A DNA stretch of 64,000 bases from contig DATLFA010000061.1 of assembly GCA_035525225.1 (NCBI GenBank), forward strand, positions 128,180 through 192,179. The letters are read 5' to 3'. Origin of the DNA: Acidimicrobiales bacterium. GTDB lineage: Bacteria; Actinomycetota; Acidimicrobiia; Acidimicrobiales; WLNW01. This document shows positions 19,894-61,126 of the stretch, piece by piece; within the stretch, counting starts at the first letter, position 1; the number at the start of each line of letters is the position of its first letter. The notes below the pieces were generated by a model. It had not been told where the DNA came from, did not search any database, and was given only the letters and a program-made list of their open reading frames with translations. The translations under genes and the position numbers were made by a program.

Positions 19894-21168
19894 GTGGCTG
19901 AACCGAGCGTCGACTATTCGCGGCCCAAGGGCACGCGCGACATCCTGCCGCCCGAGTCGCAGCGCTGGCGCGGGCTCGTCGGTGTCTTCGCGGACGTCGT
20001 CGAAACCGCCGGCTACGGCCACGTCGTGCCCCCCATGTTCGAGCACGTCGAGGTCTTCCACCGCATCGGTGAGGCCACCGACGTCGTGGCCAAAGAGATG
20101 TACGAACTGACCGACCGCGGCGGGCGCCGACTCGCGCTGCGCCCCGAGCAGACGGCGTCGGTCGTGCGCATGTTCGTCGAGAACCGCCCGAACGTGCCGT
20201 GGAAGGTCTGGTACGCCGGGCCCAACTTCCGCGCCGAGAACGTACAAAAAGGTCGCTACCGGCAGTTCGATCAAGTGGGCATCGAGGTGTTGGGTGTCGA
20301 CGATCCGTACCTCGATGTCGAGGTCATCGCGCTGGCGTGGCGGTTCTACGAGCGACTCGGGCTGACGCAGGTGCGTCTGGTGCTCAACTCGCTCGGCGCC
20401 GCCGGCGATCGCGGCCGCTATACCGAAGCGTTGCGCGAGTACTTCGGCCGTCACCTCGACGCGCTGTCGAGCGAGTCGCGCGAAACGCTGAACCGCAACC
20501 CGTTGCGCGTGCTCGATTCGAAGCGCGAAGTCGACCGCGAGATCGTCGTCGGCGCCCCGCGCCTTCGCGACTTCCTTTCACCCGACGCGGCTGCCGACTT
20601 CGAGACGGTGCAAGAGGGACTGCGGGCCCTCTCGATTCCATTCGACGTCGACGAACGCTTGGTGCGCGGGCTCGACTACTACCGCAAGACCACGTTCGAG
20701 TTTGGCGCCGGCGCGCTCGATGCCGCGCAAAACGCGGTCGGAGGTGGTGGCCGCTACGACGGGCTCGTCGAGGAGATGGGTGGTCCGCCGACCCCCGGCG
20801 TGGGCTTCGCAATCGGCGTCGATCGCACGTTGTTGGCATGCGACGCCGAAGGTGCCTTTGCTGCACCGGTGGCTGGTGTCGATGTCTTCGTCGTCGACAC
20901 CACCGGCGGGCGGCACGCGTCCGCGCTCACCGACGAGCTCTGGCGCGCCGGCATCAGAGCCGACCGCGCGTACGAGAACCGTTCGATGAAGGCACAGATG
21001 AAGGTGGCCGATCGTTCCGGAGCCGCGGTCGCCTTGATCGTCGGCGGCGACGAAGCCGAAGCGGGCGTCGTCACGGTCCGGCCGTTGCGCCGCCGCGAAG
21101 GCGAAACTGCCGCACAACGCCAGATCGCGCGGGCCGAAGTCATAGTCGAACTGAAGAGGACACTGTGA
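19894..21168 (+). CDS. hisS: Histidine--tRNA ligase
   Basis: Track ORF of 424 aa. PKGTRDILP, LRPEQTASVVR, FRAENVQKGRYRQFDQVG and GGGRYDGL are class II HisRS motifs. Confidence 0.95.
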   Translation: MAEPSVDYSRPKGTRDILPPESQRWRGLVGVFADVVETAGYGHVVPPMFEHVEVFHRIGEATDVVAKEMYELTDRGGRRLALRPEQTASVVRMFVENRPNVPWKVWYAGPNFRAENVQKGRYRQFDQVGIEVLGVDDPYLDVEVIALAWRFYERLGLTQVRLVLNSLGAAGDRGRYTEALREYFGRHLDALSSESRETLNRNPLRVLDSKREVDREIVVGAPRLRDFLSPDAAADFETVQEGLRALSIPFDVDERLVRGLDYYRKTTFEFGAGALDAAQNAVGGGGRYDGLVEEMGGPPTPGVGFAIGVDRTLLACDAEGAFAAPVAGVDVFVVDTTGGRHASALTDELWRAGIRADRAYENRSMKAQMKVADRSGAAVALIVGGDEAEAGVVTVRPLRRREGETAAQRQIARAEVIVELKRTL

Positions 21169-21211
21169 AGAGGGCACTGTGATTAGGACATCCGTGAAGA
21201 GGACATCGTGA
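21155..21211. repeat. Four tandem 14-15 nt units (AGAGGACAYYGTGA) bridging the hisS stop and the aspS start
   Basis: Units at 21155-21168, 21169-21182, 21183-21197 and 21198-21211. Each ends in GTGA. The first GTGA contains the hisS stop and the last contains the aspS start. Confidence 0.9.
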
Positions 21212-22974
21212 AGAGCTCTCGTATCACGCTTTCGCGCAGCACGTCGTTGCGAACCGACATGTGCGGTGAGCTGCGCGCTGCCGATGCGGGTCGCTCTGTC
21301 ACCGTGTGCGGCTGGGTATATCGCCGCCGCGAGCACAGCGAGCATCTGGCATTCGTCGACGTACGCGACCACACCGGCATCGTGCAGTGCGTCGTCGATG
21401 GCGCACGTGAGCTCCGCGGCGAGTATGTCGTGCGCATCAGGGGCACGGTGGCCCTGCGTCCCGCCGAGAACATCAACGACAAACTGGCGACGGGGGAGAT
21501 CGAGATCCACGATTGCACGGTCGAGGTGCTCTCCGCCGCAGAGACGCCACCGTTCACGATCGACGACCGCACCGACCAGGTCGATGAGAACGTCCGACTC
21601 CGTTATCGCTACCTCGACCTCCGACGCGACCGCATGCAGCGCAACCTGAGAATCCGGGCGGCCGTCAACAGCGCGATCCGGTCTGCGATGGAGCGGCAGG
21701 GCTTCGTCGAAGTCGAAACTCCCATGCTGATGCCATCGACCCCGGAGGGCGCTCGCGAGTTCCTCGTACCGTCGCGCAAGGAACCAGGCTCGTTCTACGC
21801 ACTCCCACAGTCGCCGCAACTCTTCAAGCAATTGTTGATGGTCGGTGGATTCGATCGCTATTTCCAGATCGCGCGGTGCTTGCGCGACGAGGATCTGCGT
21901 GCCGACCGGCAGTACGAGTTCATGCAACTCGATGCCGAGATGAGCTTCGTCGATCAGGACGATGTGCTCGAAGCGATCAGCGAAGCAGTGCTCGACGCGG
22001 CCCAGGTGACCATCGGTGAGCGCCCCGACGTGATCCCGCGCATGACCTGGCACGACGCCATGGATCGATTCGGCGTCGACAAGCCCGACCTCCGCTTCGG
22101 GATGGAACTCGTCGAGCTCACCCCGATGTTCGCCGCGACGTCGTTCAAGGCGTTCGCCGGGGCGGCGGCGATCAAGGCCATCCGCCACGCCGGGGCATCG
22201 TCGACGACGTCACGCAACCAGCTCGACGCGCTCACCGATCGCGCGAAGAAGATCGGTGCCAAGGGTCTCGTATGGATGCGTGTCGGCGACGAACGGGTCC
22301 TCGATTCGCCGGTCGCCAAGTTCCTCTCCGACGACGAAAAGTCGGCGATCGTCGCGGCGACCGATGCGCAGCCGGGCGACATGTTGTATCTCGTCGCCGA
22401 CGAATGGGCAATGACGTGTGACGTGCTCGGGCAACTGCGCAACGACCTGGGTCGCCCGCCCGTGCATCAAGGTCCGTACCGCTACGTGTGGATCGTCGAC
22501 TTCCCGATGTTCGTCGGCGTCGATGCGGTGACCGGCATCCCCAAACCGGCACACCATCCGTTCACCCGCCCGCATCCCGATGACATCAACCGCCTCGAGA
22601 GCGATCCCATGTCCGTGCGATCACGGGCCTACGACTTGGTGCTCAACGGCTGGGAGTTGGGCTCGGGTTCGATCCGTATCCACGAGCCCGAGTTGCAACA
22701 ACGCATCTTCAACCTGTTGGGCATCGCCCCCGACGAAGCGATGAAGCGATTCGGCTTCTTCCTCACGCCGTTCCGCTATGGCGCGCCGCCCCACGGCGGG
22801 TTCGCGTTCGGCATCGATCGCCTGGTGGCAATCCTCGCGGGTGAAGACAACATCCGTGAGGTCATCGCGTTCCCCAAGACGCAATCGGGCACCGATCCGA
22901 TGACCAACTCGCCGACGCCGGTCGACCCCAAGCAGTTGGCCGAACTGGGCTTGCGCGTCATCCCTCGCGCGTAG
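21208..22974 (+). CDS. aspS: Aspartate--tRNA ligase
   Basis: Track ORF of 588 aa with a GTG start. LAFVDVRDHTGIVQ (OB fold), FYALPQSPQLFKQLLMV, FQIARCLRDEDLRADRQ and GGFAFGIDRLV are class IIb AspRS motifs. Confidence 0.95.
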   Translation: MKSSRITLSRSTSLRTDMCGELRAADAGRSVTVCGWVYRRREHSEHLAFVDVRDHTGIVQCVVDGARELRGEYVVRIRGTVALRPAENINDKLATGEIEIHDCTVEVLSAAETPPFTIDDRTDQVDENVRLRYRYLDLRRDRMQRNLRIRAAVNSAIRSAMERQGFVEVETPMLMPSTPEGAREFLVPSRKEPGSFYALPQSPQLFKQLLMVGGFDRYFQIARCLRDEDLRADRQYEFMQLDAEMSFVDQDDVLEAISEAVLDAAQVTIGERPDVIPRMTWHDAMDRFGVDKPDLRFGMELVELTPMFAATSFKAFAGAAAIKAIRHAGASSTTSRNQLDALTDRAKKIGAKGLVWMRVGDERVLDSPVAKFLSDDEKSAIVAATDAQPGDMLYLVADEWAMTCDVLGQLRNDLGRPPVHQGPYRYVWIVDFPMFVGVDAVTGIPKPAHHPFTRPHPDDINRLESDPMSVRSRAYDLVLNGWELGSGSIRIHEPELQQRIFNLLGIAPDEAMKRFGFFLTPFRYGAPPHGGFAFGIDRLVAILAGEDNIREVIAFPKTQSGTDPMTNSPTPVDPKQLAELGLRVIPRA

Positions 22975-22978
22975 CGGC

Positions 22979-22996
22979 GTTCGCTCGAGAGCGAAC
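22979..22996. terminator. Hairpin between convergent aspS and a hypothetical gene (candidate bidirectional terminator)
   Basis: GTTCGCT-CGAG-AGCGAAC gives a 7-bp perfect stem. It sits 5 nt after the aspS stop and abuts the stop of the minus-strand gene. Confidence 0.4.
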
Positions 22997-23736
22997 TACA
23001 CAGGCACGACGTCGAATGCGACGACAACGCTGTTGGGCGGCGCGCTGCGGAACTCCGTACTCGCGACGCCGTCGACCAGCGCGCCGATGGTGTTGACTCG
23101 CAACTCGACCGCGAGGCGCCCCCGCTTCGCGATCGCGGCAGTGTCGCCGATCGGGGTGACCGTGAGTCCGATGCGTTCGAGTTCTTCGGTGAGATTCGTC
23201 ATCACGACCAGTGCGGGCACCGACGTCGTGACGAAGTGCGCCCGCTGGCCGCGGTCGTATCGCATGTCGTGATCGGACAACGTGAGCGGCACCAATTCGC
23301 ACGGCATCTCGATGCCGGCGATCACCTGGCCGACGGTCACCGGCGCGGCGGCCGCACGAGCGATGGTGGCCACGCTCGACGGCGCGGGGGACGAGGTGGG
23401 CGCGACCGCGATGGTCGGCGGTGCGGCGGCGGGGGTGCGAGTTGGTGCGGGCGGTGCCGGCGTCGGTGCAGCGGGTGCCGGTGCCGCCGCGACCGCGATG
23501 GCGTCGTCGATCACCTCGGCGGCCTCGACCTCGGCGGCCTCGACCTCTGCGGCCTCGGTGGCGGCAGTGGCAGCAGCCGCGGCGCTGTCGTGGAGCGCGA
23601 CGCGCATCGCCTCGCGACGGATCCGACGCTCACGCCGCCGCCGGATGGACCGGCGCACGAGGATGACCACCGATGCGAGAAACCACATCCAGAACAGGAT
23701 CGCGATGACGACCATGGCAATCCCATCGGCATCCAA
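22996..23736 (-). CDS. Hypothetical membrane-anchored protein with an Ala/Pro-rich linker
   Basis: Track ORF of 246 aa. Start is TTG at 23736 or ATG at 23715. N-terminal helix VVIAILFWMWFLASVVILV, then a basic patch, low-complexity AAEVEAAEVEAAEV...APAPAAPTPAPPAP, and a C-terminal globular domain with no family I recognise. Confidence 0.55.
   Translation of the reverse strand: MDADGIAMVVIAILFWMWFLASVVILVRRSIRRRRERRIRREAMRVALHDSAAAAATAATEAAEVEAAEVEAAEVIDDAIAVAAAPAPAAPTPAPPAPTRTPAAAPPTIAVAPTSSPAPSSVATIARAAAAPVTVGQVIAGIEMPCELVPLTLSDHDMRYDRGQRAHFVTTSVPALVVMTNLTEELERIGLTVTPIGDTAAIAKRGRLAVELRVNTIGALVDGVASTEFRSAPPNSVVVAFDVVPV
23513..23557. repeat. In-frame 15-nt x3 minisatellite inside the hypothetical gene (encodes AEVEA repeats)
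   Basis: ACCTCGGCGGCCTCG appears twice, followed by ACCTCTGCGGCCTCG. Confidence 0.85.
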
Positions 23737-23772
23737 ACGGACCCGATCAAGTATTTCCTCCGCCCGATTTCA

Positions 23773-23845
23773 CCCCCGCCTCCGGTTCTTGTGTTATTCG
23801 ATGTGTGTCGATGCTCGTCGAATAACACGAGAACGGGCGGGGAGG
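23773..23845 (+). promoter_or_regulatory. Long imperfect inverted repeat in a divergent intergenic region, extending into the SD of the downstream gene
   Basis: Core arms GTGTTATTCGA (23791-23801) and TCGAATAACAC (23818-23828) pair perfectly. The stem extends to ~17 bp (TTCTTG / CGAGAA) and then imperfectly out to the GGAGG at 23841-23845. The loop is 16 nt. Confidence 0.5.
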
Positions 23846-23858
23846 TAGGTTCGCGGAG

Positions 23859-24746
23859 ATGACGTCCTTCCTGGCCACGATGGCGGCCCACGGCGCCGCC
23901 GCCTCCGGCGACGACCTCCCCGACTTGGGCATCTGCACGTCGACGCTGCGCGCCGACCCGTTTACGTGCACGCCCGACGATCTGCAGTCGATCATCACCG
24001 CCTCGGGCCTCGCCGGGTTTCACACGGCCTCGTTGTGGCGCATGCACTATGAGATGGCCAAGGCCGGCGGCCTGCGTGACGGCGACTTGCTGCAGTGGCT
24101 CGCCGAGGCCGAGGTGTCGGTGCTCGTCGTCGAAGCCGGCGTCGAGTGGGCCAACGGCGTGAGCGAGGCGCTCACCGACGAGGCCGACGCGCTGTTCGCG
24201 CTCGCGCACCTCGTCGGCGCGACGCATCTGCTCGCGGTGACGATGAACGAAGGCGAACTCGACCTCGCGGCCGGCCGCGCCGGGCTGGCGGCATTCGCCG
24301 ACCGCGCCGCCGATGCCGGGCTCTCGTTGTCGATCGAGTGGTTGCCCTGGACTGTGTTGCCGACGTTGTCCTCTGCATGGCAGCTGATCGAATCGGTCGA
24401 CCGGGCCAACGTGGGTTTGGTCTTCGACAACTGGCACTGGCTGCGTCAACCCGGCGGACCGCAGCCCGATGTGTTGCGCACGATTCCCGGCGAACGGTTG
24501 CACTTGCTGCAATTGTGCGATGCACCCGCGGTCGCTGACGGTCCCATGCTCGAGGAGACGATGACGCGCCGGCTGTTGCCGGGTGAAGGTGCGACCGACT
24601 GGGCCGAACTGGCGCAAGTGTTCGGCGAGATCGGCGCTCGCCCGATCATCGCGCCCGAGCCGTTCAACACGGCGCGTGCCGCGCAGGGCCCCACGGTCTA
24701 CGCGCACGCCATCGCCGAAGCCACTCGGCGACTGCTCGTAGGTTGA
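23859..24746 (+). CDS. Sugar phosphate isomerase/epimerase (xylose-isomerase-like TIM barrel)
   Basis: Track ORF of 295 aa. The overall pattern (LSIEWLPW, VGLVFDNWH, LLQLCD) resembles AP-endonuclease-2/xylose-isomerase-like TIM barrels. Confidence 0.65.
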   Translation: MTSFLATMAAHGAAASGDDLPDLGICTSTLRADPFTCTPDDLQSIITASGLAGFHTASLWRMHYEMAKAGGLRDGDLLQWLAEAEVSVLVVEAGVEWANGVSEALTDEADALFALAHLVGATHLLAVTMNEGELDLAAGRAGLAAFADRAADAGLSLSIEWLPWTVLPTLSSAWQLIESVDRANVGLVFDNWHWLRQPGGPQPDVLRTIPGERLHLLQLCDAPAVADGPMLEETMTRRLLPGEGATDWAELAQVFGEIGARPIIAPEPFNTARAAQGPTVYAHAIAEATRRLLVG

Positions 24747-24759
24747 CCGGCGAGTCCTC

Positions 24760-26115: not shown

Positions 26116-26578
26116 CGTTGCGGCGGTCGTCGCGATCGTGTTGTGCCTTGCCGGCGCGGCCTTATTCGCGATCATGGTCCGCCGCATGGTCCGGGCATTG
26201 CGCGACCTCGACGCACTCGCCGAGAGCCTGCGCGTCGAGGCGGTGCCGCTCGTGAGCAACCTCCGGGCCACGGTCCGTCAAGCAGGCGACGATCTGGATC
26301 GAGTCGAGGCGGTGCTCGGCAAGGCCGAGACCATCGCGACCACCGTCGATGCCGCGTCGCGGCTGACCTACCGGGCGTTGCGGCCGCCGCTGGTGAAGAC
26401 GATGGCGTTCATGTCGGGGGCCGGTCGCGCCACCCGGCGGCTGCGGGGCCTGGAAGCCAAGGCGATCGAGGCCAAGGCGATCGACGCGAAAGCCATCGGC
26501 GCGAAGGCCGGCGACAGCACTCGGCGTGAGCAGAACCCACCGCGCCGAACCCGCCGCCGGCGCCGTGGGCGGCGATAG
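26102..26578 (+). CDS. DUF948-like membrane-anchored protein
   Basis: ATG 26102 lies inside track ORF 26063..26578 and overlaps the rarA end. One N-terminal helix is followed by coiled-coil-like LRDLDALAESLRVEAVPLVSNLRATVRQAGDDLDRVEAVL and a basic tail. Confidence 0.65.
   Translation: MSAIDVAAVVAIVLCLAGAALFAIMVRRMVRALRDLDALAESLRVEAVPLVSNLRATVRQAGDDLDRVEAVLGKAETIATTVDAASRLTYRALRPPLVKTMAFMSGAGRATRRLRGLEAKAIEAKAIDAKAIGAKAGDSTRREQNPPRRTRRRRRGRR
26453..26512. repeat. In-frame 15-nt x4 minisatellite (EAKAI EAKAI DAKAI GAKAG) in the DUF948 gene tail
   Basis: Units: GAAGCCAAGGCGATC, GAGGCCAAGGCGATC, GACGCGAAAGCCATC, GGCGCGAAGGCCGGC. Confidence 0.85.
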
Positions 26579-26591
26579 GCGTCTTTCCCCT

Positions 26592-26661
26592 GCCAATGTG
26601 ACCAGCGGCGGATTATCGCCGCCAATGTGACCAGCGGCGGATTATCGCCGCCAATGTGACT
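26592..26661. repeat. R1 element: 29-nt unit GCCAATGTGACCAGCGGCGGATTATCGCC, 2.4 tandem copies
   Basis: Identical copies at 26592-26620 and 26621-26649, with a partial third copy at 26650-26661. Each holds a small hairpin (CGGCGG-ATTA-TCGCCG) and ATGTGA. A related array lies at 34369-34426. Confidence 0.9.
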
Positions 26662-26672
26662 AGCCTGGTCGG

Positions 26673-26981: not shown

Positions 26982-27010
26982 CTCCACCGAGCGCCCTACA
27001 ATCTGCGGTC

Positions 27011-32290: not shown

Positions 32291-32353
32291 ACTTCGGCGG
32301 CCAGATGCCGACAAAAGACTCAAGTTAGGACCGCACGCCGGAGGTCAAGAACC

Positions 32354-34368: not shown

Positions 34369-34426
34369 CCGAACGGCGGATTATCGCCGTCAATGTGCCG
34401 AACGGCGGATTATCGCCGTCAATGTG
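34369..34426. repeat. R1 element: two tandem 29-nt copies (CCGAACGGCGGATTATCGCCGTCAATGTG)
   Basis: Identical copies at 34369-34397 and 34398-34426. They share the 23-nt core CGGCGGATTATCGCCG[C/T]CAATGTG and the same 29-nt period with the array at 26592-26661. Confidence 0.9.
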
Positions 34427-38388: not shown

Positions 38389-38952
38389 ATGCCCGCCATC
38401 ACCACCAACGACATCAAGACCGGGATGACCCTCGAGATCGACTCGGGTCTGTTCCAGATCGTCGATTTCCAACACGTCAAGCCGGGCAAAGGGCACGCCT
38501 TCGTGCGCACCACACTGAAGAACGTGCGCACCGGTGCGGTCATCGACCGTACGTTCCGCGCGGCCGAACGCGTCGAGCGGGCCATCGTCGACAAGCGCGA
38601 GATGCAGTTCCTCTACCGCGACGGTGACGACTACGTGTTCATGGACAACACCACGTACGACCAGATGCAGGTCGCGCCGTCCACATTGGGTGATGCGTCG
38701 AATTACCTGATCGAAAACGCCACGGCCATCCTCAACATGTACGGCGACGAGGTGGTCGGTGTCGATCTCCCGGCATCGGTCGAGCTCACGATCGCCTCTA
38801 CCGAGCCGGGCGTGCAGGGCGACCGGGTCTCGGGTGCCCGCAAGCCGGCGACCCTCGAGACGGGGCTCGTGGTGCAGGTGCCCCTCTTCGTCAACCCCGG
38901 CGAGCGCGTCAAGGTCGATACCCGCAGCGGCGAATACCTCACCCGTGCGTGA
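38389..38952 (+). CDS. efp: Elongation factor P
   Basis: ATG 38389 lies inside track ORF 38188..38952. TNDIKTGMTLEIDSGLFQIVDFQHVKPGKGHAFVRTTLKN. Confidence 0.95.
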   Translation: MPAITTNDIKTGMTLEIDSGLFQIVDFQHVKPGKGHAFVRTTLKNVRTGAVIDRTFRAAERVERAIVDKREMQFLYRDGDDYVFMDNTTYDQMQVAPSTLGDASNYLIENATAILNMYGDEVVGVDLPASVELTIASTEPGVQGDRVSGARKPATLETGLVVQVPLFVNPGERVKVDTRSGEYLTRA

Positions 38953-38973
38953 CCTGTCGATCGTCGCTCGGCC

Positions 38974-39672
38974 GTGACCGACCCCGACGATCCTCGCGCG
39001 GAGGCGGCCGCCGACCGTCGCGATGATGCCTATCGCCCCGCACGGTCCGACGCAGTCCCACTGGCGTTCCCGCTGCACCTGTTGCCGGTCGAGGCCGACG
39101 AAGACTCCGAAGTCGTCCTCGAAGAGGTGATCTCGCCGGCCGATGACGGCAAGCCGTTGCGGCCGCGGCGTGAGGCCCGCGAGACAGCGCTCGTCCTGTT
39201 GTACGAAGCCGAGGCGCGCGGCGTCGACCCGCTCGAGGTGCTCGACGCTCAGATCGTCACTCCGCTCGACTACACGGTCGCGCTATTGAGGGGCGTCAGC
39301 GAACACCTCGCCGACAGCGACGCCCTCATCACCCAATTCGCCCGCGAATGGCGACTCGAGCGCATGCCGTCGATCGATCGCTGCCTCATGCGTATCGCCG
39401 TCTACGAGTTGGGTTACCGCAGCGACGTGCCCACCGGGGTCGTGCTCGCGGAGGCCGTCGAATTGGCCAGCCGCTATTCGACCGCGGACTCGTCGCGCTT
39501 CGTCAACGGGATCTTGGCCCGCGTGGCCGAGCACGTCCGCCGATCACCGCAACGCGCCGGTGAGCCCCCGGCCGAAGACACTGATCCTCTCGGAAGAGAC
39601 ACTGGTCTTCTCGGAAGAGAAACTGGTCCCGACACGTCCAAGGACCGTGGGATTGGCAACAACCACCGGTGA
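38974..39672 (+). CDS. nusB: Transcription antitermination factor NusB with N- and C-terminal extensions
   Basis: Track ORF of 232 aa. Core RREARETALVLLYEAEARG...IDRCLMRIAVYEL...AVELASRYSTADSSRFVNGILARV. The tail carries 21-nt repeats. Confidence 0.85.
   Translation: MTDPDDPRAEAAADRRDDAYRPARSDAVPLAFPLHLLPVEADEDSEVVLEEVISPADDGKPLRPRREARETALVLLYEAEARGVDPLEVLDAQIVTPLDYTVALLRGVSEHLADSDALITQFAREWRLERMPSIDRCLMRIAVYELGYRSDVPTGVVLAEAVELASRYSTADSSRFVNGILARVAEHVRRSPQRAGEPPAEDTDPLGRDTGLLGRETGPDTSKDRGIGNNHR
39577..39631. repeat. In-frame 21-nt repeat, about 2.6 copies, in the nusB C-terminal tail
   Basis: GACACTGATCCTCTCGGAAGA, then GACACTGGTCTTCTCGGAAGA, then GAAACTGGTCCCG. They encode DTDPLGR, DTGLLGR and ETGP. 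Confidence 0.85.
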
Positions 39673-45778: not shown

Positions 45779-45919
45779 GAGTCAGGGAAGGTACCGACCG
45801 CGGCAACCCGCCCGGCGACCGACGCTGCGTGAGGGATGGCATCGACCAACCGTACGCGCCTGGCGACGTGCATGGTGTGACCACGCGCCTTCAAACGCGG
45901 CGAGCTGGGCAGGCTAGCC

Positions 45920-50899: not shown

Positions 50900-50982
50900 A
50901 CATCTATCGAAAATGGCGTCAAGCCGGCGGACACTTTTCACATGACGCGACAATCGGCTTTGGGCCCGGTAGGGTCAGCGCC

Positions 50983-51312: not shown

Positions 51313-51378
51313 CACGCGCTCGTATAGTCGGCGCTCGAGCAACCTGCGGTTGGTCGACCCGGTCTCGACACCACCGTC

Positions 51379-51966
51379 ATGAACCGACGGCCGCTGACGA
51401 TCGTCTTGTCGGGCGCCGGCGGTGCGGGCAAAGGCACGATCGCGCGTCGCCTCGCCGAGCTCGATCACACGTTGTGGCTGTCGCGTTCGTGGACGACGCG
51501 TTCGCCTCGCGTCGACGATGCTCCGCTCGCGTATCGCTACGCCACCCGAGAAGAGTTCGAGCGCCATCGCGAACGTGGGGGGTTCCTCGAGTGGAACCAA
51601 TTCCACGACAACCTGTACGGCACCCCGGTGCCCGACCCGCCGGCCGGACACGACATCCTGCTCGAGATCGACGTCAACGGCGGGCGGCAAGTGCGCCGGC
51701 ATCATCGCGACGCTCTGTTGATCTTCGTCGAGGCACCGTCGGTGGAAGAACAGCGCCGGCGGCTGTTACGCCGGGGCGATTCGCCCGTGCAGGCCCAGGC
51801 CCGCATCCGCGAGGGCGACCGCGAGCGGCGCGACGCGAGAACGCTCGGCTACCGCTTCGTCGTCAACGACGACCTCGACAGGGCGGTCGCAGAGATCCGT
51901 CAGGCCATCGAGGAACGCCGCCCGCCGCGCAAAGCGGGCGAGCCGGGGCCAACAGTGAGACAGTGA
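51379..51966 (+). CDS. gmk: Guanylate kinase
   Basis: Track ORF of 195 aa. P-loop SGAGGAGKGT, SWTTRSPR, FLEWNQFHDNLYGTP and the overall Gmk pattern. Confidence 0.85.
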   Translation: MNRRPLTIVLSGAGGAGKGTIARRLAELDHTLWLSRSWTTRSPRVDDAPLAYRYATREEFERHRERGGFLEWNQFHDNLYGTPVPDPPAGHDILLEIDVNGGRQVRRHHRDALLIFVEAPSVEEQRRRLLRRGDSPVQAQARIREGDRERRDARTLGYRFVVNDDLDRAVAEIRQAIEERRPPRKAGEPGPTVRQ

Positions 51967-51997
51967 GGGCCAACAGTGAGGGCCAACAGTGAGGGAC
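51946..51997. repeat. 13-nt tandem repeat (GGGCCAACAGTGA) spanning the gmk stop; four GTGA motifs
   Basis: Full copies at 51946-51958, 51967-51979 and 51980-51992, plus an 8-nt partial GACAGTGA at 51959-51966 that contains the gmk stop, and a trailing GGGAC. Confidence 0.9.
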
Positions 51998-52075
51998 TCG
52001 GCCCCTGATCTGATAGCGTTCAACGGGCCGATTTCGGCAGTTGCCGCGCGTCTCGCGCTGTGAACAGGAGTGTTG

Positions 52076-52366
52076 ATGGCCGAGCGCACTGACATGATGA
52101 CCCAGCCCCCGATCGAGGAATTGCTCGATCGCGCCCAGTCGAAGTTTCGCTTGGTGACGCTTTCGGCAAAGCGGGCCCGCCAGATCAACGCCTACTACGG
52201 GCAGTTGGGCGAGGGCCTGGGGTCCTCCATCCCTCCGCAGGTCACCTCCACGGCACGCACATCGCTCTCGCTGGCGTTCCAAGAGATCGCGGCCGACAAG
52301 ATCGTCGCAATCGAGCCGGCCGAAGTAACCGAAGAGGTCGCGGCCGAGGAGCAAGGCGACGCCTGA
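52076..52366 (+). CDS. rpoZ: DNA-directed RNA polymerase subunit omega
   Basis: ATG 52076 follows CAGGAG (track ORF starts at TTG 52070). IEELLDRAQSKFRLVTLSAKRARQIN. Confidence 0.9.
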   Translation: MAERTDMMTQPPIEELLDRAQSKFRLVTLSAKRARQINAYYGQLGEGLGSSIPPQVTSTARTSLSLAFQEIAADKIVAIEPAEVTEEVAAEEQGDA

Positions 52367-52397
52367 CGTCGCCCCCGCTCGGTTCTAGGAAGCTGCC

Positions 52398-53612: not shown

Positions 53613-53653
53613 CCAACCAACCGCACCAGAACCACAACTAGGAGCATCACCCA

Positions 53654-54850: not shown

Positions 54851-54860
54851 GCGCGGGGGA

Positions 54861-56684
54861 GTGGCAGCCGGGGCCGGCAGCAGACGCCCGCAACAATCCA
54901 CGCGCGCGCCGCACTTCACCCGCATCGTTCGCGTCCTGCCCGATGTCGCGGCCATCGGCCGTGAGTTCGACTACGGAGTCCCCGACGAATGGCTCGCCGA
55001 CGGGCGGGCGTCACTCGTGCGCGTCGGCTCGATGGTTCGCATCGATCTCAACGGGCGCCGCGTCGGTGGCTGGATCGTCGACGACGACGTCGAGGCTCCC
55101 GCGGGTGTCACCGTCCGGGCTCTCGCCAAGATCTCGGGGCTGGGGCCCGACACGACGGTCGTCGACCTGGCCCGGTGGACCGCGTGGCGTTGGGCCGGGC
55201 GCGTCGCCGCGGCACTGACCGCGGCCTCTCCCGGCCATGTCGTGGCGGGGTTGCCCGCCGCAGCCGCACTACCGATCGTGCCGGTGGGCGCGACGACCGT
55301 CGATGCGTACGCGGACCGCGCGTTCCGGGCCGAGCGCGCCGTGATGCGTGTGCCCGCATCGATCGGTGACCGCCCGCTCGTGTTGGCCGCAGTTCGCGCC
55401 GCATTCGCGCGTGGTGGCTGGGCGCTGGTGTTGTCCCCGTCGGTCGACCGTGCCCGATCGATCGCGGCCGAACTGCGCCGGGCCAACATCGCCGTCGCGC
55501 TGTATCCGCGCGATTGGGCGCAAGCCGCCGCTGGCGCCACGGTCGTCGGGGCGCGGGCCGCCGCATTCGCGACCACTGCGAAATTGGGTGCCGTGCTGGT
55601 GCTCGACGAACACGATGAGTCGTACAAAGAGGAGCGGGCGCCGGCGTGGCACGCCCGCGATGTCGCCATCGAAAGGGCGCGACGAGCCGGGGTCCCGTGC
55701 GTGCTCAGCGCACCGTCGCCGACGCTCGACGCGTCGTGGCGCGACGGGCGTCCGTGGGGCGAACTGATCACACTGTCGCGCTACGAAGAGCGCGCGGCGT
55801 GGCCGATCGTCGACGTGATCGACGTGCGCCGCGAAGAGCCCGGTGGTGCCCGTCTCAGTGCGCGATTGGTTCCGGCCCTGCGCGGCCCCGGACCAGTCGT
55901 GTGCGTGCTCAACCGCACCGGCCGGGCACGTTTGTTGGCGTGCGCGGCGTGTGGCGAGCTGGTGCGTTGTGAAACCCACCGTGTTCCCTTGATGCAAGAC
56001 GATGCCGGCTTGTTGGTCTGCCCTCGCGACGACGAGGCGCGCCCCGCAGTGTGCGCGCACTGCGGTTCGACGAGCCTGCGCAACCTCCGCCAAGGCGTGG
56101 CGAGGGTGCGTGAAGAGCTCGAAGCGTTGGCGAATCGACCGGTGATCGAGGTGACCGCGGCGCACGCGCTGAAAGACGCGCGGGCCGACGTCTACATCGG
56201 CACGGAATCGGTGCTGCATCAACTCGATCACGCCAAGGCCGTGGTGTTCCTCGACTTCGACCAAGAGTTGCTGGCGCCGCGCACGCGGGCGAGCGAGCAG
56301 GCGATGACGTTGTTGACGCGAGCGGCTCGATTGGTCGGCCCGAGGGCGGACGGCGGCCGCATCCTCGTGCAGACGCGCTGGCCTCGCCATGACGTGCTCG
56401 AGGCCGCGCAGCGCGCCGACCCGGGCCGTTTCGCCGAGCGTGAACGCATTCGCCGCCTCGAACTCGCGATGCCGCCGTTCTGCGCAGAGGCCCTCGTGTC
56501 CGGCTCGGCCGCGGCCGAGTACATCGACCGCCTCGGTCACCCGCTCGGGATCACCGTGCGGGGGCCTTCCAACGGGCAATGGCTGGTGACGGCGGCCGAG
56601 CACAAACCGCTGTGCGACGCGCTGGCCGCAGTCGAACGCCCCCCGGGCCGCCTCCGCGTGGAAGTCGACCCCCTCCGCATCTGA
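54861..56684 (+). CDS. priA: Primosomal protein N' (PriA-like) without a recognisable Walker A motif
   Basis: Track ORF of 607 aa. N-terminal VRVLPDVAAIGREFDYGVPDEW, LVLDEHDESYK (DExH-like), a Cys cluster CAACGELVRC...VCPRDD...CAHCGS, and a C-terminal PriA-like region. Confidence 0.75.
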   Translation: MAAGAGSRRPQQSTRAPHFTRIVRVLPDVAAIGREFDYGVPDEWLADGRASLVRVGSMVRIDLNGRRVGGWIVDDDVEAPAGVTVRALAKISGLGPDTTVVDLARWTAWRWAGRVAAALTAASPGHVVAGLPAAAALPIVPVGATTVDAYADRAFRAERAVMRVPASIGDRPLVLAAVRAAFARGGWALVLSPSVDRARSIAAELRRANIAVALYPRDWAQAAAGATVVGARAAAFATTAKLGAVLVLDEHDESYKEERAPAWHARDVAIERARRAGVPCVLSAPSPTLDASWRDGRPWGELITLSRYEERAAWPIVDVIDVRREEPGGARLSARLVPALRGPGPVVCVLNRTGRARLLACAACGELVRCETHRVPLMQDDAGLLVCPRDDEARPAVCAHCGSTSLRNLRQGVARVREELEALANRPVIEVTAAHALKDARADVYIGTESVLHQLDHAKAVVFLDFDQELLAPRTRASEQAMTLLTRAARLVGPRADGGRILVQTRWPRHDVLEAAQRADPGRFAERERIRRLELAMPPFCAEALVSGSAAAEYIDRLGHPLGITVRGPSNGQWLVTAAEHKPLCDALAAVERPPGRLRVEVDPLRI

Positions 56685-56703
56685 CCCGCGGGCCAACCCC
56701 ATT

Positions 56704-56721
56704 CCCAACCTTCTGGGTGGG
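56704..56721. terminator. Weak hairpin between convergent priA and the methyltransferase gene
   Basis: CCCAACC-TTCT-GGGTGGG gives a 7-bp stem with one mismatch. Confidence 0.25.
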
Positions 56722-56738
56722 CTGGTCTCGGGGCGGCA

Positions 56739-57257
56739 CTACCAGCGTTGGCGGCGCAGCTCGTAGAGGGCGATCGCGGTCGCGGTAGCGACGTTGAGGG
56801 AGCCGACCTTGCCGAGCATCGGCAGATACGCGACGGCGTCGCAGGCGTCGAGTGTCGACGGGCCGAGGCCGCGATCCTCGTGGCCGATCACGAGGCACAC
56901 ATCGCCGGCGACGGTGAGCTCGTGCAACGGGGTCGCTCCGTCGGCGAGCTCGAGGCCCACCGTCGTGAATGCGGCGGCCCGCGCCCCGCCGAGCGCGTCG
57001 GCGATGGTGGCGCAGCGTTGCCACGTCAGGTAGCGATCGCAGCCGAGCGCGGTCTTGCGCACCTTGGCATCGTCGAGTTCGGGCGTCGTACCGACGAGCC
57101 ATGCGTGTTCGACGCGGTACGAGGCAGCCGTTCGCACGATCGCGCCGACGTTGAATGGCGACTGCACGTTGTCGAGCACGAGCGCGAGCCGGCCGTCACT
57201 GCGATGACGCCACTCGCGGTGCAGTCGCTTCAAGCCCGTGCCGTCGAGCGGCTTCAT
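56739..57257 (-). CDS. SpoU/TrmH-family RNA 2'-O-methyltransferase
   Basis: ATG is the complement of 57255-57257, inside track ORF 56739..57653. NVQSPFNVGAIVRTA, LVIGHEDRGL and LPMLGKVGSLNVATATAIALYE. Confidence 0.8.
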   Translation of the reverse strand: MKPLDGTGLKRLHREWRHRSDGRLALVLDNVQSPFNVGAIVRTAASYRVEHAWLVGTTPELDDAKVRKTALGCDRYLTWQRCATIADALGGARAAAFTTVGLELADGATPLHELTVAGDVCLVIGHEDRGLGPSTLDACDAVAYLPMLGKVGSLNVATATAIALYELRRQRW

Positions 57258-57865
57258 CGTCGGACCTCGAGGATGCGATAGGCGCGGCGGGACACGAGTC
57301 TTTTCATGGTCCATCCCTCGTCGCCGAGCCAGCGGGCGAGCGAGTCGGCGCCGAGGTGCTTTTGCACGACGAGATACGCGACGCCGTCGGGCACGAGGCG
57401 CCCGAGCCAATGGGCCAGGAGATCGTGCAGTGCCGCCTTGCCGATGCGGATGGGCGGATTGCTGTAGATCACATCGAACTCGACATCGCCGGCCACGTCG
57501 TCGGGACCGCACACGTGCACCCGATCGGCCACCTGCGCGCGGGCAGCATTGTCGACGCACAACGCGCGGGCACGCTCGTTGCTGTCGACGGCCCAGACCT
57601 CGCAGTGGGGGGCCAGGCGAGCCAGCGCAACCGCGATCGGGCCGTATCCGCAACCGAGATCGAGCGCACGCAGTTGCGCCGGTCGGGGCGAGGGCGCTTC
57701 GAGCAGCAACAATTTGGTACCCGGGTCGATGCCATCGACGGCAAAGACGCCTCTGTCGGTGGTCAGCCGCAGCGAGACACCCGGCAGGGTCAGGTCGACC
57801 TCACGCGGTTGCGAACGCGCCGTGGGCTCGGCCTCGAAGTAGTGACCGCTCGTAGGTTCAGCCAT
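57254..57865 (-). CDS. Class I SAM-dependent methyltransferase (RsmC/RsmD-like small-domain type)
   Basis: ATG is the complement of 57863-57865, inside track ORF 57254..58393. DLGCGYGPIAV and YSNPPIRIG (NPPxH/R motif). Its stop overlaps the downstream start (ATGA on the minus strand). Confidence 0.8.
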   Translation of the reverse strand: MAEPTSGHYFEAEPTARSQPREVDLTLPGVSLRLTTDRGVFAVDGIDPGTKLLLLEAPSPRPAQLRALDLGCGYGPIAVALARLAPHCEVWAVDSNERARALCVDNAARAQVADRVHVCGPDDVAGDVEFDVIYSNPPIRIGKAALHDLLAHWLGRLVPDGVAYLVVQKHLGADSLARWLGDEGWTMKRLVSRRAYRILEVRR

Positions 57866-57892
57866 CGCGTGCTGACGGTAGCCTGCAATCCC

Positions 57893-58498
57893 ATGGCGCC
57901 CTACGAGATACGGATCATCGGCGACCCTGTCCTCCGCCAGCGCGCGGCCGAGGTCACGCAGGTCGACGGGGCATTGGCCCGTCTCTGCGACGACATGTTG
58001 CACACGATGTACGAAGCGCCCGGCATCGGCCTGGCGGCCCCTCAGGTCGGAGTGCAAAAGCGTCTGTTCGTCTACGACGTGGGTGAAGGTCCGGGTGTGC
58101 TCGTCAATCCGGTGATCGTCGAGTCTCGCGGCACGTGGATGTACGAGGAAGGCTGCCTCTCGGTACCCGGTCTGTCGTGGGAGATCGAGCGGCCCAACGA
58201 GATCCACATACGGGGCTACGACCTCGACGGCAACGAGGTCGACATCGAGGCCGACGAGTTGCTCGGGCGCCTCTTCCAGCACGAGTTCGATCATCTCGAC
58301 GGCATCTTGCTCGTGGAGCGACTCGACGACGACCTGCGCCGGGCTGCGCTCAAGACGATCCGTGAGATGGTGCAAAACGGCACTCTGACGCACGAGAATC
58401 GCGCCCGCCTTCGCGAGGAGGCAATGGGCCCGAGCGGCCCTTCAGAGCGGGGACCGGGCCCGAGCGGTCAGACGTCGAGCGGTCTCTCGTTGCCGTGA
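57893..58498 (+). CDS. def: Peptide deformylase with a repeat-derived Gly/Pro/Ser tail
   Basis: ATG 57893 lies inside track ORF 57155..58498. GIGLAAPQVG, EGCLSVPG and QHEFDHLDG. The extra tail is MGPSGPSERGPGPSGQTSSGLSLP. Confidence 0.9.
   Translation: MAPYEIRIIGDPVLRQRAAEVTQVDGALARLCDDMLHTMYEAPGIGLAAPQVGVQKRLFVYDVGEGPGVLVNPVIVESRGTWMYEEGCLSVPGLSWEIERPNEIHIRGYDLDGNEVDIEADELLGRLFQHEFDHLDGILLVERLDDDLRRAALKTIREMVQNGTLTHENRARLREEAMGPSGPSERGPGPSGQTSSGLSLP
58426..58482. repeat. R2 element, two tandem copies (30-nt period), in frame in the def C-terminal tail
   Basis: GGGCCCGAGCGGCCCTTCAGAGCGG at 58426-58450 and a diverged copy CCGGGCCCGAGCGGTCAGACGTCGAGCGG at 58454-58482. The array ends 13 nt before the def/fmt GTGA junction. 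Confidence 0.9.
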
Positions 58499-59391
58499 CG
58501 CAACAACCGCCGCGCCATCCCCGGCGCTTGGTGTACCTGGGTACTCCCGAACTCGCGGTCCCTCCGCTGCTCGCGTTGCACGAGGCCGGATTCGAGATCC
58601 CACTGGTCGTGTCGCGTGCCGACAAGCGACGTATGCGCGGCAGTGCGCTCGCACCTTCACCGGTCAAGGCCGCGGCGCTCGAACTCGGCTTGCCGGTGAC
58701 CGATCAAGTCGACGACGTGCTGTCGGTCGATGCCGATCTCGGAGTCGTCGTGGCGTTCGGTCGTCTGATCAAGCCACACGTGCTCGACCGGTTGGCAATG
58801 GTCAACATGCATTTCTCGTTGCTGCCGCGTTGGCGCGGCGCGGCGCCCGTCGAGCGGGCGATACTGGCCGGCGATCGTGAGACCGGCGTCGACATCATGG
58901 CCGTCGAGGAAGGGCTCGACACGGGAGGTATCTACTCCGAGACGCGGGTCGCGATCGACGACGACGTCACGCTGCTCGAGCTTCGCGGGCTGCTGGTCGA
59001 GCGGGGGACGAACCTGTTGTTGGATGTCTTGCGCGACGGTATTGCCGAGCCCCGGGCACAGGTCGGTGAGCCGACGTACGCGGCCAAGATCGAGGCCCAT
59101 GAACATGAGCTCGATTGGAGACAACCGGCAGTTCAGCTGGCGCGCGTAGTACGCCTCGGCGAGGCGTGGACCACGTTCCGAGGACGCCGGCTCAAAGTGC
59201 ATCGCGCGCACGCCGTCGAGCGTTCGTCACCCGCGCCCGGCGTGCTCGACGGTGCGTTCGTCGGCACCGCGTCGGGCGCGCTCGAGCTCGTGACCGTGCA
59301 GCCCGAGGGCAAGGCGCCCATGCCGTTCACGTCATGGCGCAATGGTGCTCGGCCGACAATCGGCGAAGTGCTCGGCGCGGCAGCGCCATGA
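58495..59391 (+). CDS. fmt: Methionyl-tRNA formyltransferase
   Basis: Track ORF of 298 aa with a GTGA overlap with def. LVYLGTPELAV, NMHFSLLPRWRGAAPVERAI and TGVDIM. Confidence 0.9.
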   Translation: MTQQPPRHPRRLVYLGTPELAVPPLLALHEAGFEIPLVVSRADKRRMRGSALAPSPVKAAALELGLPVTDQVDDVLSVDADLGVVVAFGRLIKPHVLDRLAMVNMHFSLLPRWRGAAPVERAILAGDRETGVDIMAVEEGLDTGGIYSETRVAIDDDVTLLELRGLLVERGTNLLLDVLRDGIAEPRAQVGEPTYAAKIEAHEHELDWRQPAVQLARVVRLGEAWTTFRGRRLKVHRAHAVERSSPAPGVLDGAFVGTASGALELVTVQPEGKAPMPFTSWRNGARPTIGEVLGAAAP

Positions 59392-59424
59392 CCAACACCG
59401 GCGCGGCAGCGCCATGACCAATAA
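59373..59424. repeat. 26-nt tandem duplication (24/26 identical) of the fmt-stop / rsmB-start junction
   Basis: CGGCGCGGCAGCGCCATGACCAACAC at 59373-59398 and CGGCGCGGCAGCGCCATGACCAATAA at 59399-59424. Each copy contains ATGA. Confidence 0.95.
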
Positions 59425-60541
59425 GGCCGCCGACACGCGCCGGCTTGCCATCGACGCGCTGGTCCGTATCGATGCCGACGGTGCCTATGCGAACATCGTG
59501 TTGCCGCACATGTTGCAGCGAAGTCGCCTCGACTCGCGAGACCGCGCGTTCGCGACAGAGCTGGTCTATGGAACCACGCGGATGCGCCGCGCTTGTGACT
59601 GGCTCGTCGACCGGTACTTGATCGCACCGGTCGAGCCCGTGGTACGCGCCGCGTTGCGGCTGGGTGCGTATCAACTCGTGTTCGTCGAGGTCCCCGCTCA
59701 TGCCGCGGTCAACACCACGGTGAGCGCGTCACCCGCCAGGGCGCGCCGTCTTGTCAACGCGGTACTGCGCAAGGTCAGTGCGGAGACCGATCGCGCGTGG
59801 CCCGACGATGCCACCCGCCTCAGCTATCCGGAGTGGATCGTCGAGCGGCTGCGCGCCGATCTGGGCACGACCGATGCCGATGACGCTCTTGCCGCGATGA
59901 ACGTCGGCGCGCCATCGACCGTGCGCGCCGATGGTTACGTGCAAGACGAATCGTCACAACTGGTCGGTGCGGCTGTCGACGCCGCGCCGGATGAACGCAT
60001 CGCCGACACCTGTGCCGCGCCGGGCGGCAAAGCGACCGCATTGGCCGCGTCCGGAGCGCTCGTCGTGGCGAGCGACTTGCGCGCGAGCCGCGTGTCGTTG
60101 ATCGCGGCCAATCGCGAGCAGCTGGATGCGCACTCGTTGCTCGTCTCCGTCGCCGACGGTACCCGCCTGCCGTATCGCGACGCGTCGTTCGATCGTGTGC
60201 TCGTCGACGCGCCGTGTTCGGGGCTCGGCGCACTGCGCCATCGTCCCGATGCGCGTTGGCGCATCGACGAGGCTGCGCCCGATCGTTTGGCGGCGCTGCA
60301 GTTCGATTTGCTGCGCGAGGCCGAGCGCATCGTCGCGCCCGGGGGAGTTGTGCTCTACAGCGTGTGCACGCTCACCGACGCCGAAACCGTCGCCGTCGAC
60401 GCACGGGTCGAGCGCGAGTTGCCGAGCTTGGTGCCGGCTTCGCTGCCCGCGCCGTGGGAGGAGAGAGGCCGCGGCGGGCAGATCCTGCCGCAGTTGCTCG
60501 GCACCGACGGCATGTTCGCAGTTCGTTACGACAAGCGCTGA
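59414..60541 (+). CDS. rsmB: 16S rRNA (cytosine-C5)-methyltransferase RsmB/Sun
   Basis: ATG 59414 lies inside track ORF 59342..60541. NusB-like N-terminus AIDALVRIDADGAYANIVL, then DTCAAPGGKAT, DAPCSGLGALRHRPD and YSVCT. Confidence 0.85.
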   Translation: MTNKAADTRRLAIDALVRIDADGAYANIVLPHMLQRSRLDSRDRAFATELVYGTTRMRRACDWLVDRYLIAPVEPVVRAALRLGAYQLVFVEVPAHAAVNTTVSASPARARRLVNAVLRKVSAETDRAWPDDATRLSYPEWIVERLRADLGTTDADDALAAMNVGAPSTVRADGYVQDESSQLVGAAVDAAPDERIADTCAAPGGKATALAASGALVVASDLRASRVSLIAANREQLDAHSLLVSVADGTRLPYRDASFDRVLVDAPCSGLGALRHRPDARWRIDEAAPDRLAALQFDLLREAERIVAPGGVVLYSVCTLTDAETVAVDARVERELPSLVPASLPAPWEERGRGGQILPQLLGTDGMFAVRYDKR

Positions 60542-60612
60542 CCGGCGTTGGGACTGCGTCCAGAAAACGCCTCGATAGCCTCCTGTCAATAGTGAGAAGG
60601 GCGAGGGAGCAC

Positions 60613-61101
60613 ATGTCCGATCGAGATCCCGCCGGTATCGACGCCAAGGTCTTGACCGTCTCCGATGGCGTCATCCATGGCACGCGCGAAGACAAGTCGG
60701 GGGTGGCCGTCGCGGAGTGCCTCACTCGTCACGGATTCGCAGTGGTCGACCGTCGAGTGGTGGCCGACGGTGTCGAGTCGGTCGCGGAGGCGCTTCGATC
60801 GATGGCCAAGGGTTTCGCCGGCGTGATCGTCACGACCGGCGGCACGGGCTTCGGTCCGCGCGATCTGACCCCGGAGGGGACCAAGACCGTCATCGATCGC
60901 GAGGCACCCGGCCTGGCCGAGGCAATGCGGCTGGTGAACCCACTCGGCCGGCTCTCGCGGGGCATCGCCGGCACCGTCGATCACGCACTGGTGCTCAACA
61001 CGCCGGGTTCGCCCAAGGGTACGGTCGAATGTCTCGAGGCCGTGATCGACATCGTGCCCCACGCGGTGCGCTTGCTGGTCGACGCGCCGACGCAGCACTG
61101 A
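60613..61101 (+). CDS. mogA: MogA/MoaB-family molybdenum cofactor biosynthesis protein
   Basis: ATG 60613 follows GAGGGAG, inside track ORF 60214..61101. VLTVSDG, VIVTTGGTGFGPRDLTPE and LNTPGSPKG. Confidence 0.8.
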   Translation: MSDRDPAGIDAKVLTVSDGVIHGTREDKSGVAVAECLTRHGFAVVDRRVVADGVESVAEALRSMAKGFAGVIVTTGGTGFGPRDLTPEGTKTVIDREAPGLAEAMRLVNPLGRLSRGIAGTVDHALVLNTPGSPKGTVECLEAVIDIVPHAVRLLVDAPTQH

Positions 61102-61126
61102 CGCAACACTGACGTAGCACTCGTGA
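61091..61126. repeat. 11-14 nt x3 reiteration of the mogA stop region, ending in the ribD start
   Basis: CGCAGCACTGA at 61091-61101 contains the mogA stop. CGCAACACTGA follows at 61102-61112. CGTAGCACTCGTGA at 61113-61126 contains the ribD GTG at 61123. Confidence 0.85.

Follow-up and report, generated by a model that had tools for sequence, protein, structure and literature searches.

Slippage duplications on the stop codons of an Acidimicrobiales genome and a possible translational relay at duplicated stop/start junctions

In a 64,000-nt stretch of a genome of the Acidimicrobiales (GenBank assembly GCA_035525225.1, contig DATLFA010000061.1, positions 128,180 to 192,179; here called the window), very short tandem arrays lie on the ends of genes, and at two gene pairs, hisS-aspS and fmt-rsmB, the repeated segment is the junction at which the stop codon of one gene overlaps the start codon of the next. 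Our preferred reading, to which we assign a probability of about 55%, is that the arrays arose by slippage as local duplications that take in a stop codon and that, where the duplicated segment was a four-nucleotide overlap (NTGA, an NTG start on a TGA stop), only duplications in a phase that lets a series of short open reading frames (mini-ORFs) relay ribosomes from one gene to the next would have been kept. The first half of this reading, that the arrays are local slippage duplications tolerated because a stop is included, is solid. The relay function and the phase filter we infer from comparative patterns among related genomes.

Results

Arrays in the window and their placement on stop codons

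The window has a GC content of 67% and comes from a metagenome-assembled genome (MAG) of an uncultured member of the Acidimicrobiales, as judged from searches with PriA, HisS, RsmB and Gmk; NCBI contains RsmB and Gmk proteins identical to those encoded here. An original prediction, made from the sequence of this DNA, had listed 14 four-nucleotide stop/start overlaps and five tandem arrays. All 14 overlaps are NTGA, with one long open frame ending and another beginning at each, and all five arrays were recovered with Tandem Repeats Finder (TRF) and a repeat finder, the one at the end of a small gene having a period of 17 nt and not 18 nt. Genes were named by Pfam, which agrees with the names proposed for hisS, aspS, gmk, rpoZ, fmt, rsmB, a MogA-like gene and ribD. 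On the gene map, the five loci are intercistronic and in the same orientation as the neighboring genes, and their units of 11, 13, 14 to 15, 17 and 26 nt have nothing in common except NTGA. Two arrays had been overlooked, one at 62721-62745, which is the fifth to straddle a stop codon, and a possible out-of-phase duplication between efp and nusB (38939-38979).

This placement exceeds chance. In the window, all 12 arrays with a period divisible by three lie inside genes, while of the 11 with other periods, 8 occupy either a stop codon or noncoding DNA, which makes up 6.6% of the sequence (P = 1.2e-6). We then pooled the window with 135 Acidimicrobiales loci, which gave 1.88 Mb with 1,886 stop-bearing genes and 88% coding sequence, the gene calls being made in-house; loci are cited below by our labels (L followed by a number). 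In this set, arrays inside genes have periods of 0, 1 and 2 mod 3 in 294, 40 and 42 cases (50, 3 and 1 at a score of at least 60). Arrays with periods other than 3n reach a density of 122/Mb on stop codons, compared to 56/Mb in intergenic DNA and 13/Mb inside genes. When a 19-nt word centered on each stop was sought up to 150 nt downstream, with mismatched controls, it was repeated in 29 genes against 1.95 expected.

The arrays that straddle a stop codon number 27, with periods of 0, 1 and 2 mod 3 in 9, 10 and 8 cases and, hence, no phase bias. Most of them are distant from any start, and their periods proved uninformative when used to examine the phase hypothesis, because most are not at stop/start junctions. 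Both the placement on stops and the lack of phase bias are what purifying selection against frameshifts predicts. If a duplication includes the stop, the protein is unchanged, and it follows automatically that every unit has its own stop. The renewal of NTGA in each unit, pointed out in the original prediction, is equally automatic when the duplicated segment contains NTGA, and given a period of 2 mod 3, a chain of mini-ORFs follows by arithmetic.

The hisS-aspS junction

The hisS-aspS array (21152-21215, plus strand) holds 4.5 copies of a 14- to 15-nt unit, TGAAGAGGACACTG (TRF period 14, 80% matches), and every unit contains GTGA and a GAGG resembling a Shine-Dalgarno (SD) sequence. Chains were traced with a script that follows NTGA overlaps, and the two chains that had been predicted, here and at fmt-rsmB, proved exact and unbroken. 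Mini-ORF 1 (VKRAL*, 5 codons, 21165-21182) begins with GTG 21165 over the hisS stop TGA at 21166-21168 and ends with TGA 21180 over the next GTG. From this GTG, at 21179, mini-ORF 2 (VIRTSVKRTS*, 10 codons, 21179-21211) continues to TGA 21209-21211, which overlaps the aspS start GTG 21208, the spacings between successive overlaps being 14 and 29 nt.

Relatives whose HisS proteins are 85 to 92% identical were compared together with their DNA. Against the 4.5 copies of the window, L082 and L085 have 1.5 and L083 has 2.5, and L088 shows a separate, degenerate expansion with a single 12-codon mini-ORF and a spacing of 35 nt. The junction is a plain GTGA overlap in L082, L084 and L085, where AspS has 587 to 588 amino acids (aa), and such single-copy orthologous junctions bear out the view that the units are copies of the local junction and do not belong to a dispersed family. 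In L082 and L085, the single-copy junction (cTGAAGAGgacactgTGAAGAGctc) already contains TGAAGAG twice, 14 nt apart, and so provides a ready substrate for slippage. L083 has gained one 15-nt unit in frame, so that its HisS ends in LKRTLLKRTL, and the length of HisS ranges from 424 to 429 aa among the relatives. The array itself is base-for-base identical in a separate assembly, the Logan assembly of run SRR8556377.

A start of aspS at TTG 21247 would detach the array from the start codon, and this possibility was considered and rejected. The 13 codons that follow GTG 21208 differ among the window, L082 and L083 at third positions only, TTG 21247 of the window corresponds to CTG in L083, and the relatives' AspS has 588 aa; the third-position changes and the CTG place the start at 21208. 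AspS in this clade thus has a 13-residue N-terminal extension, VKSSRITLSRSTS (21208-21246), ahead of the usual start LRTDMCGELR, and it is this extension that brings the start of aspS back onto the hisS stop.

The fmt-rsmB junction

Between fmt and rsmB, the repeat finder detected two 26-nt copies of CGGCGCGGCAGCGCCATGACCAAYAM (59373-59424, plus strand) that are 92% identical and carry one ATGA each. A single mini-ORF (MTNTGAAAP*, 9 codons, 59388-59417) begins with ATG 59388 over the fmt stop at 59389-59391, and its TGA 59415 overlaps the rsmB ATG at 59414, the position where the NCBI-annotated RsmB (375 aa) begins. The 26-nt duplication is common to at least four genomes, namely the window, L027, L170 and L169, with orthologous mini-ORFs MTNVGATAP* in L027 and MTNTGATAP* in L170 and L169, the last of which has an added 17-nt step. 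L172 has a single copy, and its fmt extends 11 nt into rsmB. The fmt-rsmB duplication is older than the other arrays. Over 18 nt, the window's two copies show no difference, while orthologous copies differ by 2 to 3 nt, a pattern that indicates concerted evolution. The 22-nt spacer has the same length in all four genomes and a divergence of 0.09 to 0.27, compared to 0.36 to 0.46 at the 4-fold sites of rsmB. For a candidate hairpin before the rsmB ATGA (GGyGC-N4-GCrCC, with C-G, T.G and T-A variants), fold z-scores ranged from -0.8 to -1.8, and in the minimum-energy fold it is the two copies, A and B, that pair with each other instead.

The gene at 59414-60541 encodes an RsmB-type 16S rRNA methyltransferase with a NusB-like N-terminal domain followed by Methyltr_RsmB-F. 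The NCBI record of this MAG names the product "transcription antitermination factor NusB," which is probably a misnaming by way of the N-terminal domain.

Phase of duplicated junctions among relatives

Relay-phase classes were defined post hoc, and start codons were those of the in-house caller. At every locus where a copy stands at the next start or leads up to it, all spacings are 2 mod 3 with no break in the chain. Besides the hisS-aspS chains of the window and L088, the script verified chains at fmt-rsmB with spacings of 26 nt (window, L027 and L170), 17 + 26 nt (L169), 83 nt (L080) and 89 + 14 nt (L028), at pyrB-pyrC (20 + 17 nt, L049), coaBC-metK (68 nt, L020) and sbcD-sbcC (74 nt, L074), and the genes flanking these chains were confirmed to be real. 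Others are at pyrR-pyrB (41 + 35 nt, L049), in L117/L131 (11 nt) and at def-fmt (17, 14 and 17 nt). One more def-fmt spacing, of 26 nt in L041, is ambiguous, as fmt there apparently starts, from a reading of the sequence, at a TTG inside the first mini-ORF. L049 is a complete Acidimicrobiales genome, and its relay-type duplications occupy two successive junctions of the pyr operon (1942-2995).

Among independent first-step spacings at four-nucleotide overlaps, seven of seven are 2 mod 3 (P = 0.004), where mutational opportunity, estimated from microhomologies spanning 315 NTGA junctions, would give a proportion of 0.42 to 0.48. In this, duplicated stop/start junctions, which are nearly always in the relay phase, differ from arrays at gene ends in general, which are unbiased. 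In a test that does not depend on similarity between copies, pairs of the form NTGA...NTGA were 2 mod 3 in 60 cases and 1 mod 3 in 30 (22 and 10 by ortholog cluster, P = 0.025), with the limit that this test relies on in-house start calls, which inflate the in-frame class.

The carA-carB pair is an independent case with a different geometry. In most of the order, the two genes overlap by 1 nt (TGATG or TAATG), while one clade has a 14-nt overlap, and this clade comprises five single-copy genomes and four expanded ones with spacings of 34, 37, 46 and 67 nt. All four expansions are in the phase that the 14-nt geometry requires. These spacings differ by multiples of 3, as do the orthologous spacers of 17 versus 26 nt and 14 versus 17 nt. 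The expansion reaches 5.5 copies of a 34-nt unit in L074 (449-635), and the loci considered for this pair also included L039, L051 and L053; in the window, carA and carB are separated by 141 nt (45779-45919). Overall, the comparison is suggestive of duplicated stop/start junctions having been filtered for a relay-keeping phase, at p values of about 0.004 to 0.02 for classes defined after the fact.

Arrays at gene ends

The array at the end of gmk (51946-51997, plus strand) consists of 2.8 copies of 13 nt (51960-51995) and an 8-nt pair (51952-51967), has GTGA in each unit and spans the gmk stop at 51964-51966. It is a gene-end array and not a stop/start junction, and it lies upstream of a promoter-like region of rpoZ; the rpoZ start follows at a distance of about 110 nt and is preceded by a conserved -10-like TAGCGT. 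Across the order, the gmk-rpoZ spacer measures 30 to 110 nt and the -10-like TAGCCT/TAGCGT is conserved. Among relatives, the Gmk tail ends at 185 to 203 aa, and in L173 the gmk frame continues through the homologue of what follows the stop in the window and ends at the position of the window's last unit; the L002 locus ends short of the gmk end.

The mogA-ribD array (61089-61121, plus strand, 3.0 copies of 11 nt by TRF) includes two CTGA stops and is followed by the ribD GTG at 61123. Each unit had been described as carrying a stop and usually a start fused to it; the stops are present in all arrays, but the mogA-ribD units, being CTGA, have no fused start and form no chain. The mogA-ribD spacer is 1 nt in L171 and L089, the latter being the only close relative that a metagenome scan yielded, 9 nt in L027 and L169, and 21 nt in the window, with one unit in all four relatives and three here. 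The small-ORF array (5353-5385, minus strand, 1.9 copies of 17 nt by TRF) spans the stop of a putative 53-codon ORF (5370-5531) in a convergent spacer, and this ORF gave no Pfam match. The overlooked array at 62721-62745 (plus strand, 1.9 copies of 13 nt by TRF) lies at the end of the gene at 62136-62735 and reads GACGAACTCGAC[TGA]CGAAATCGAC. At gmk, mogA-ribD and the 5353 array, the chain script found no mini-ORF overlapping a flanking stop or start, and these three arrays belong to a generic gene-end class without phase bias or relay.

Close to the gmk array, the approximately 57 nt before the rpoZ ATG (52020-52078) are identical in the window, L173 and L171, though 4-fold sites differ by about 40%. 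This stretch is located downstream of the -10-like TGATAGCGT and contains two small GC hairpins, GCCGAtttCGGC and GCGCGtctCGCGC. It is also spanned by a 24-codon ORF, but what is conserved is the nucleotide sequence. The stretch had no Rfam match and resembles a conserved rpoZ leader. An exact search for RpoZ returned no match, and Rfam 15 at the gathering score gave 0 matches across the 64-kb window.

Other repeats in the window

A 29-nt tandem repeat occurs in two intergenic spacers 7.7 kb apart, at 26592-26664 (2.5 copies) and 34369-34426 (2.0 copies), with 97 to 100% identity. Both arrays share the core GGCGGATTATCGCCGYCAATGTG, and the 14-nt core is present in four exact copies against 0.87 expected; the core was found in none of the fetched loci. 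The first array continues into TGACTAGCCTGGTCGGATG, with a -10-like TAGCCT 6 nt before ATG 26673, and this TAGCCT is conserved in L082, where the 29-nt repeat is absent. The repeats are possibly duplicated promoter or operator sequences.

Discussion

These arrays are local tandem duplications that replication slippage at short direct repeats has produced and that take in a stop codon. The upstream gene still ends in the first copy and the downstream gene still starts in the last, and the array persists because neither flanking protein changes, while in such tightly packed operons any other duplication of a length not divisible by three would be a frameshift. The gmk tail, mogA-ribD, the end of the small ORF and 62721 form one class, made up of near-neutral by-products with no phase preference. 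In the other class (hisS-aspS and fmt-rsmB), a former four-nucleotide NTGA overlap was duplicated, with NTGA remade in each unit. A ribosome terminating at the upstream TGA would reinitiate at the overlapping NTG, read a mini-ORF of 5 to 30 codons, stop on the next NTGA and repeat this step until the downstream gene is reached. Termination-reinitiation at -4/-1 overlaps is well established (PMC6728339, PMC10666635), and a spacer of about 20 nt nearly abolishes it in Escherichia coli and Haloferax volcanii (PMC10666635). Since coupling collapses at such a distance, the duplication of a junction by 14 to 90 nt would uncouple the pair unless the units supply in-phase overlapping starts and stops, and only duplications with relay-keeping spacings, i.e., 2 mod 3 for a four-nucleotide overlap, would be expected to persist. 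The original prediction had considered that slippage might leave a footprint which is retained only where coupling is preserved. This is consistent with all recognizable duplications of four-nucleotide overlaps, which are 2 mod 3 with unbroken chains, but it does not describe three of the five arrays, which have no relay.

Several of our own observations weigh against a relay that is maintained by selection. The number of events is small, the classes are post hoc and the gene calls were made in-house. The efp-nusB pair may be a counterexample, or a chance similarity: GTGA occurs at the efp stop (38949) and at the nusB start (38974), 25 nt apart, within a 16-nt repeat of 75% identity (38939-38979, plus strand), and the ORF from GTG 38949 extends 25 codons into nusB, out of frame. 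If this pair and the in-frame cases in L107 and L149 are included, 10 of 13 events are in phase (P = 0.02), and counting in-frame duplications among those that preserve coupling leaves no significant depletion of the remaining class (about 0.1, hand calculation). Microhomology in codon phase itself biases spacings toward 2 mod 3, and the similarity-free test showed no in-phase enrichment of NTGA at the downstream start (47% in phase and 40% out of phase). The aspS gene may not need a relay, given the SD-like GAGG of its own in each unit, and the low divergence of the fmt-rsmB spacer could have come about through gene conversion with the flanking copies, which are constrained, and need not imply selection on the spacer. 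Finally, L171 has a fmt-rsmB spacing of 25 nt, which we do not count as firm evidence because the assembly splits many genes. In this contig (ENA ERZ1700618), many genes are split or short compared to those of relatives (gmk, 136 aa; ribD, 214 aa; hisG, 134 aa), which suggests that the assembly holds indel errors and that its single-base spacing differences, such as this one, are untrustworthy.

Several of these points are also what would be expected if the arrays were neutral slippage debris that survives as protein-neutral, the chains being an arithmetic by-product of a 2 mod 3 period forced by microhomology and having no role in translation. We regard this explanation as possible, with perhaps one chance in a few of being right. 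It accounts well for stop-straddling arrays being common, unbiased overall and mostly distant from starts, and the 14-nt period at hisS-aspS is set by a TGAAGAG repeat that was there before the expansion. The bias in mutational opportunity, however, amounts to less than half of events, compared to the complete agreement in phase at both the four-nucleotide overlaps and the carA-carB expansions. Neutral debris also does not lead one to expect that orthologous spacers differ by multiples of 3, or that the fmt-rsmB spacer has a constant length in four genomes and diverges at about 40% of the rate of 4-fold sites.

A third explanation is that the arrays are contingency loci, in which the number of units is selected to set the ratio of downstream to upstream protein. 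The copy numbers do vary among relatives (1.5, 2.5 and 4.5 at hisS-aspS, 2 and 3 at fmt-rsmB, and 1 and 3 at mogA-ribD), and the concerted evolution seen in the window shows that slippage is ongoing. The differences, however, are between genomes 8 to 17% apart in protein sequence and not between strains, the sole second assembly of this organism has the same hisS-aspS copy number, and the diverged hisS-aspS units argue against rapid turnover. These are also housekeeping enzymes with no obvious need for switching, and we find copy-number tuning improbable. A dispersed mobile family of the type of mycobacterial interspersed repetitive units (MIRU) or miniature inverted-repeat transposable elements, inserting at start codons, is very hard to uphold in spite of the intercistronic, gene-oriented position, the mini-ORFs that overlap flanking stops and starts and an 89-nt insert in L028 that is flanked by the junction word, since the five loci share only NTGA, units are 11 to 26 nt long and each is made of its own junction sequence, single-copy orthologues without an insert exist, and there are neither terminal inverted repeats nor copies elsewhere. 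An artefact of assembly or binning is just as improbable: short repeats in a MAG can be misassembled, but the hisS-aspS array is identical in the Logan assembly, the fmt-rsmB duplication recurs in four other assemblies, made in different projects, and the arrays are far below read length.

A wider proposal, which we advance tentatively and at slightly less than even odds, is that slippage separates overlapping stop/start junctions without uncoupling them and that selection keeps the spacings that permit the ribosome to hop. The phase distribution of such junctions would then be a genome-wide readout of dependence on termination-reinitiation, and a MIRU-like relay would have arisen repeatedly and de novo across the Acidimicrobiia, at hisS-aspS, fmt-rsmB, def-fmt, pyrR-pyrB, pyrB-pyrC, coaBC-metK, sbcD-sbcC and carA-carB. 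If the phase filter is real, it provides evolutionary evidence, from uncultured bacteria, that termination-reinitiation coupling affects fitness at housekeeping operons and that coupling can be transmitted across a spacer through serial mini-ORFs. The spacing mod 3 of duplicated junctions would, if the proposal is true, be a simple comparative statistic that predicts which gene pairs are coupled, and a mechanism for the separation of overlapping genes is suggested. If the filter is not real, the finding is the expected survivorship of frameshift-neutral duplications. There is also a warning for annotation, as short repeats at gene ends shift the called starts and stops, seen here in the lengths of HisS and Gmk.

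The known system that comes closest in organization is MIRU. In the summary given in PMC12548453, MIRU are described as lying in tandem between codirectional cistrons, with small ORFs that have 4-nt overlaps with the neighboring stop and start, as at two of the loci reported here, and an internal ORF of MIRU is coupled to the downstream gene at -4 nt, an arrangement described there, citing Supply 1997, as minimizing the impact of insertion. In both systems, these overlaps plausibly preserve downstream translation. According to the same source, MIRU of Mycobacterium are dispersed, apparently mobile and about 40 to 100 bp long with a shared sequence. The units reported here, in contrast, are 11 to 26 nt long, reach about 90 nt at most in other genomes, originate by slippage at their own junction, are not shared between loci and occur in Acidimicrobiia. 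Membership in the MIRU family was therefore rejected on unit size, dispersal and shared sequence. The likeness to MIRU that the original prediction had drawn applies to hisS-aspS and fmt-rsmB, the only two loci where mini-ORFs form 4-nt overlaps with the stop before them and the start after them; gmk, mogA-ribD and the small-ORF end have no relay.

With termination-reinitiation pairs, the arrays share the -4 geometry, since every step of both chains is a -4 overlap, and hisS-aspS, fmt-rsmB, pyrB-pyrC and def-fmt all go back to the canonical NTGA overlap. The cases described so far are single junctions (Huber et al. 2019, PMC6728339; 2023, PMC10666635), whereas here the junction is reiterated and two or three serial events would be needed. 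Short upstream ORFs that deliver ribosomes, and synthetic bicistronic designs, likewise use a short nonfunctional ORF that ends on a start codon (PMC12548453). Such ORFs start independently, at an SD sequence or a leaderless 5' end (PMC12548453), while the mini-ORFs described here would start by reinitiation from the upstream gene, and their peptides are chimeras of the termini of the neighbors, unlike those of ribosome-delivering ORFs. Ordinary minisatellites with a variable number of tandem repeats have in common with these arrays the head-to-tail units, the origin from microhomology, the differences in copy number between relatives and the concerted evolution, and here, too, the units lie at a preexisting direct repeat and copies vary and are homogenized among related genomes. 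The present arrays are distinguished by their position on stop codons and by their pattern of phase at stop/start junctions. In the open-access literature, we found no description of relays arising by local duplication of a junction, and the arrays are best filed as a new variant within the known logic of coupling and relay.

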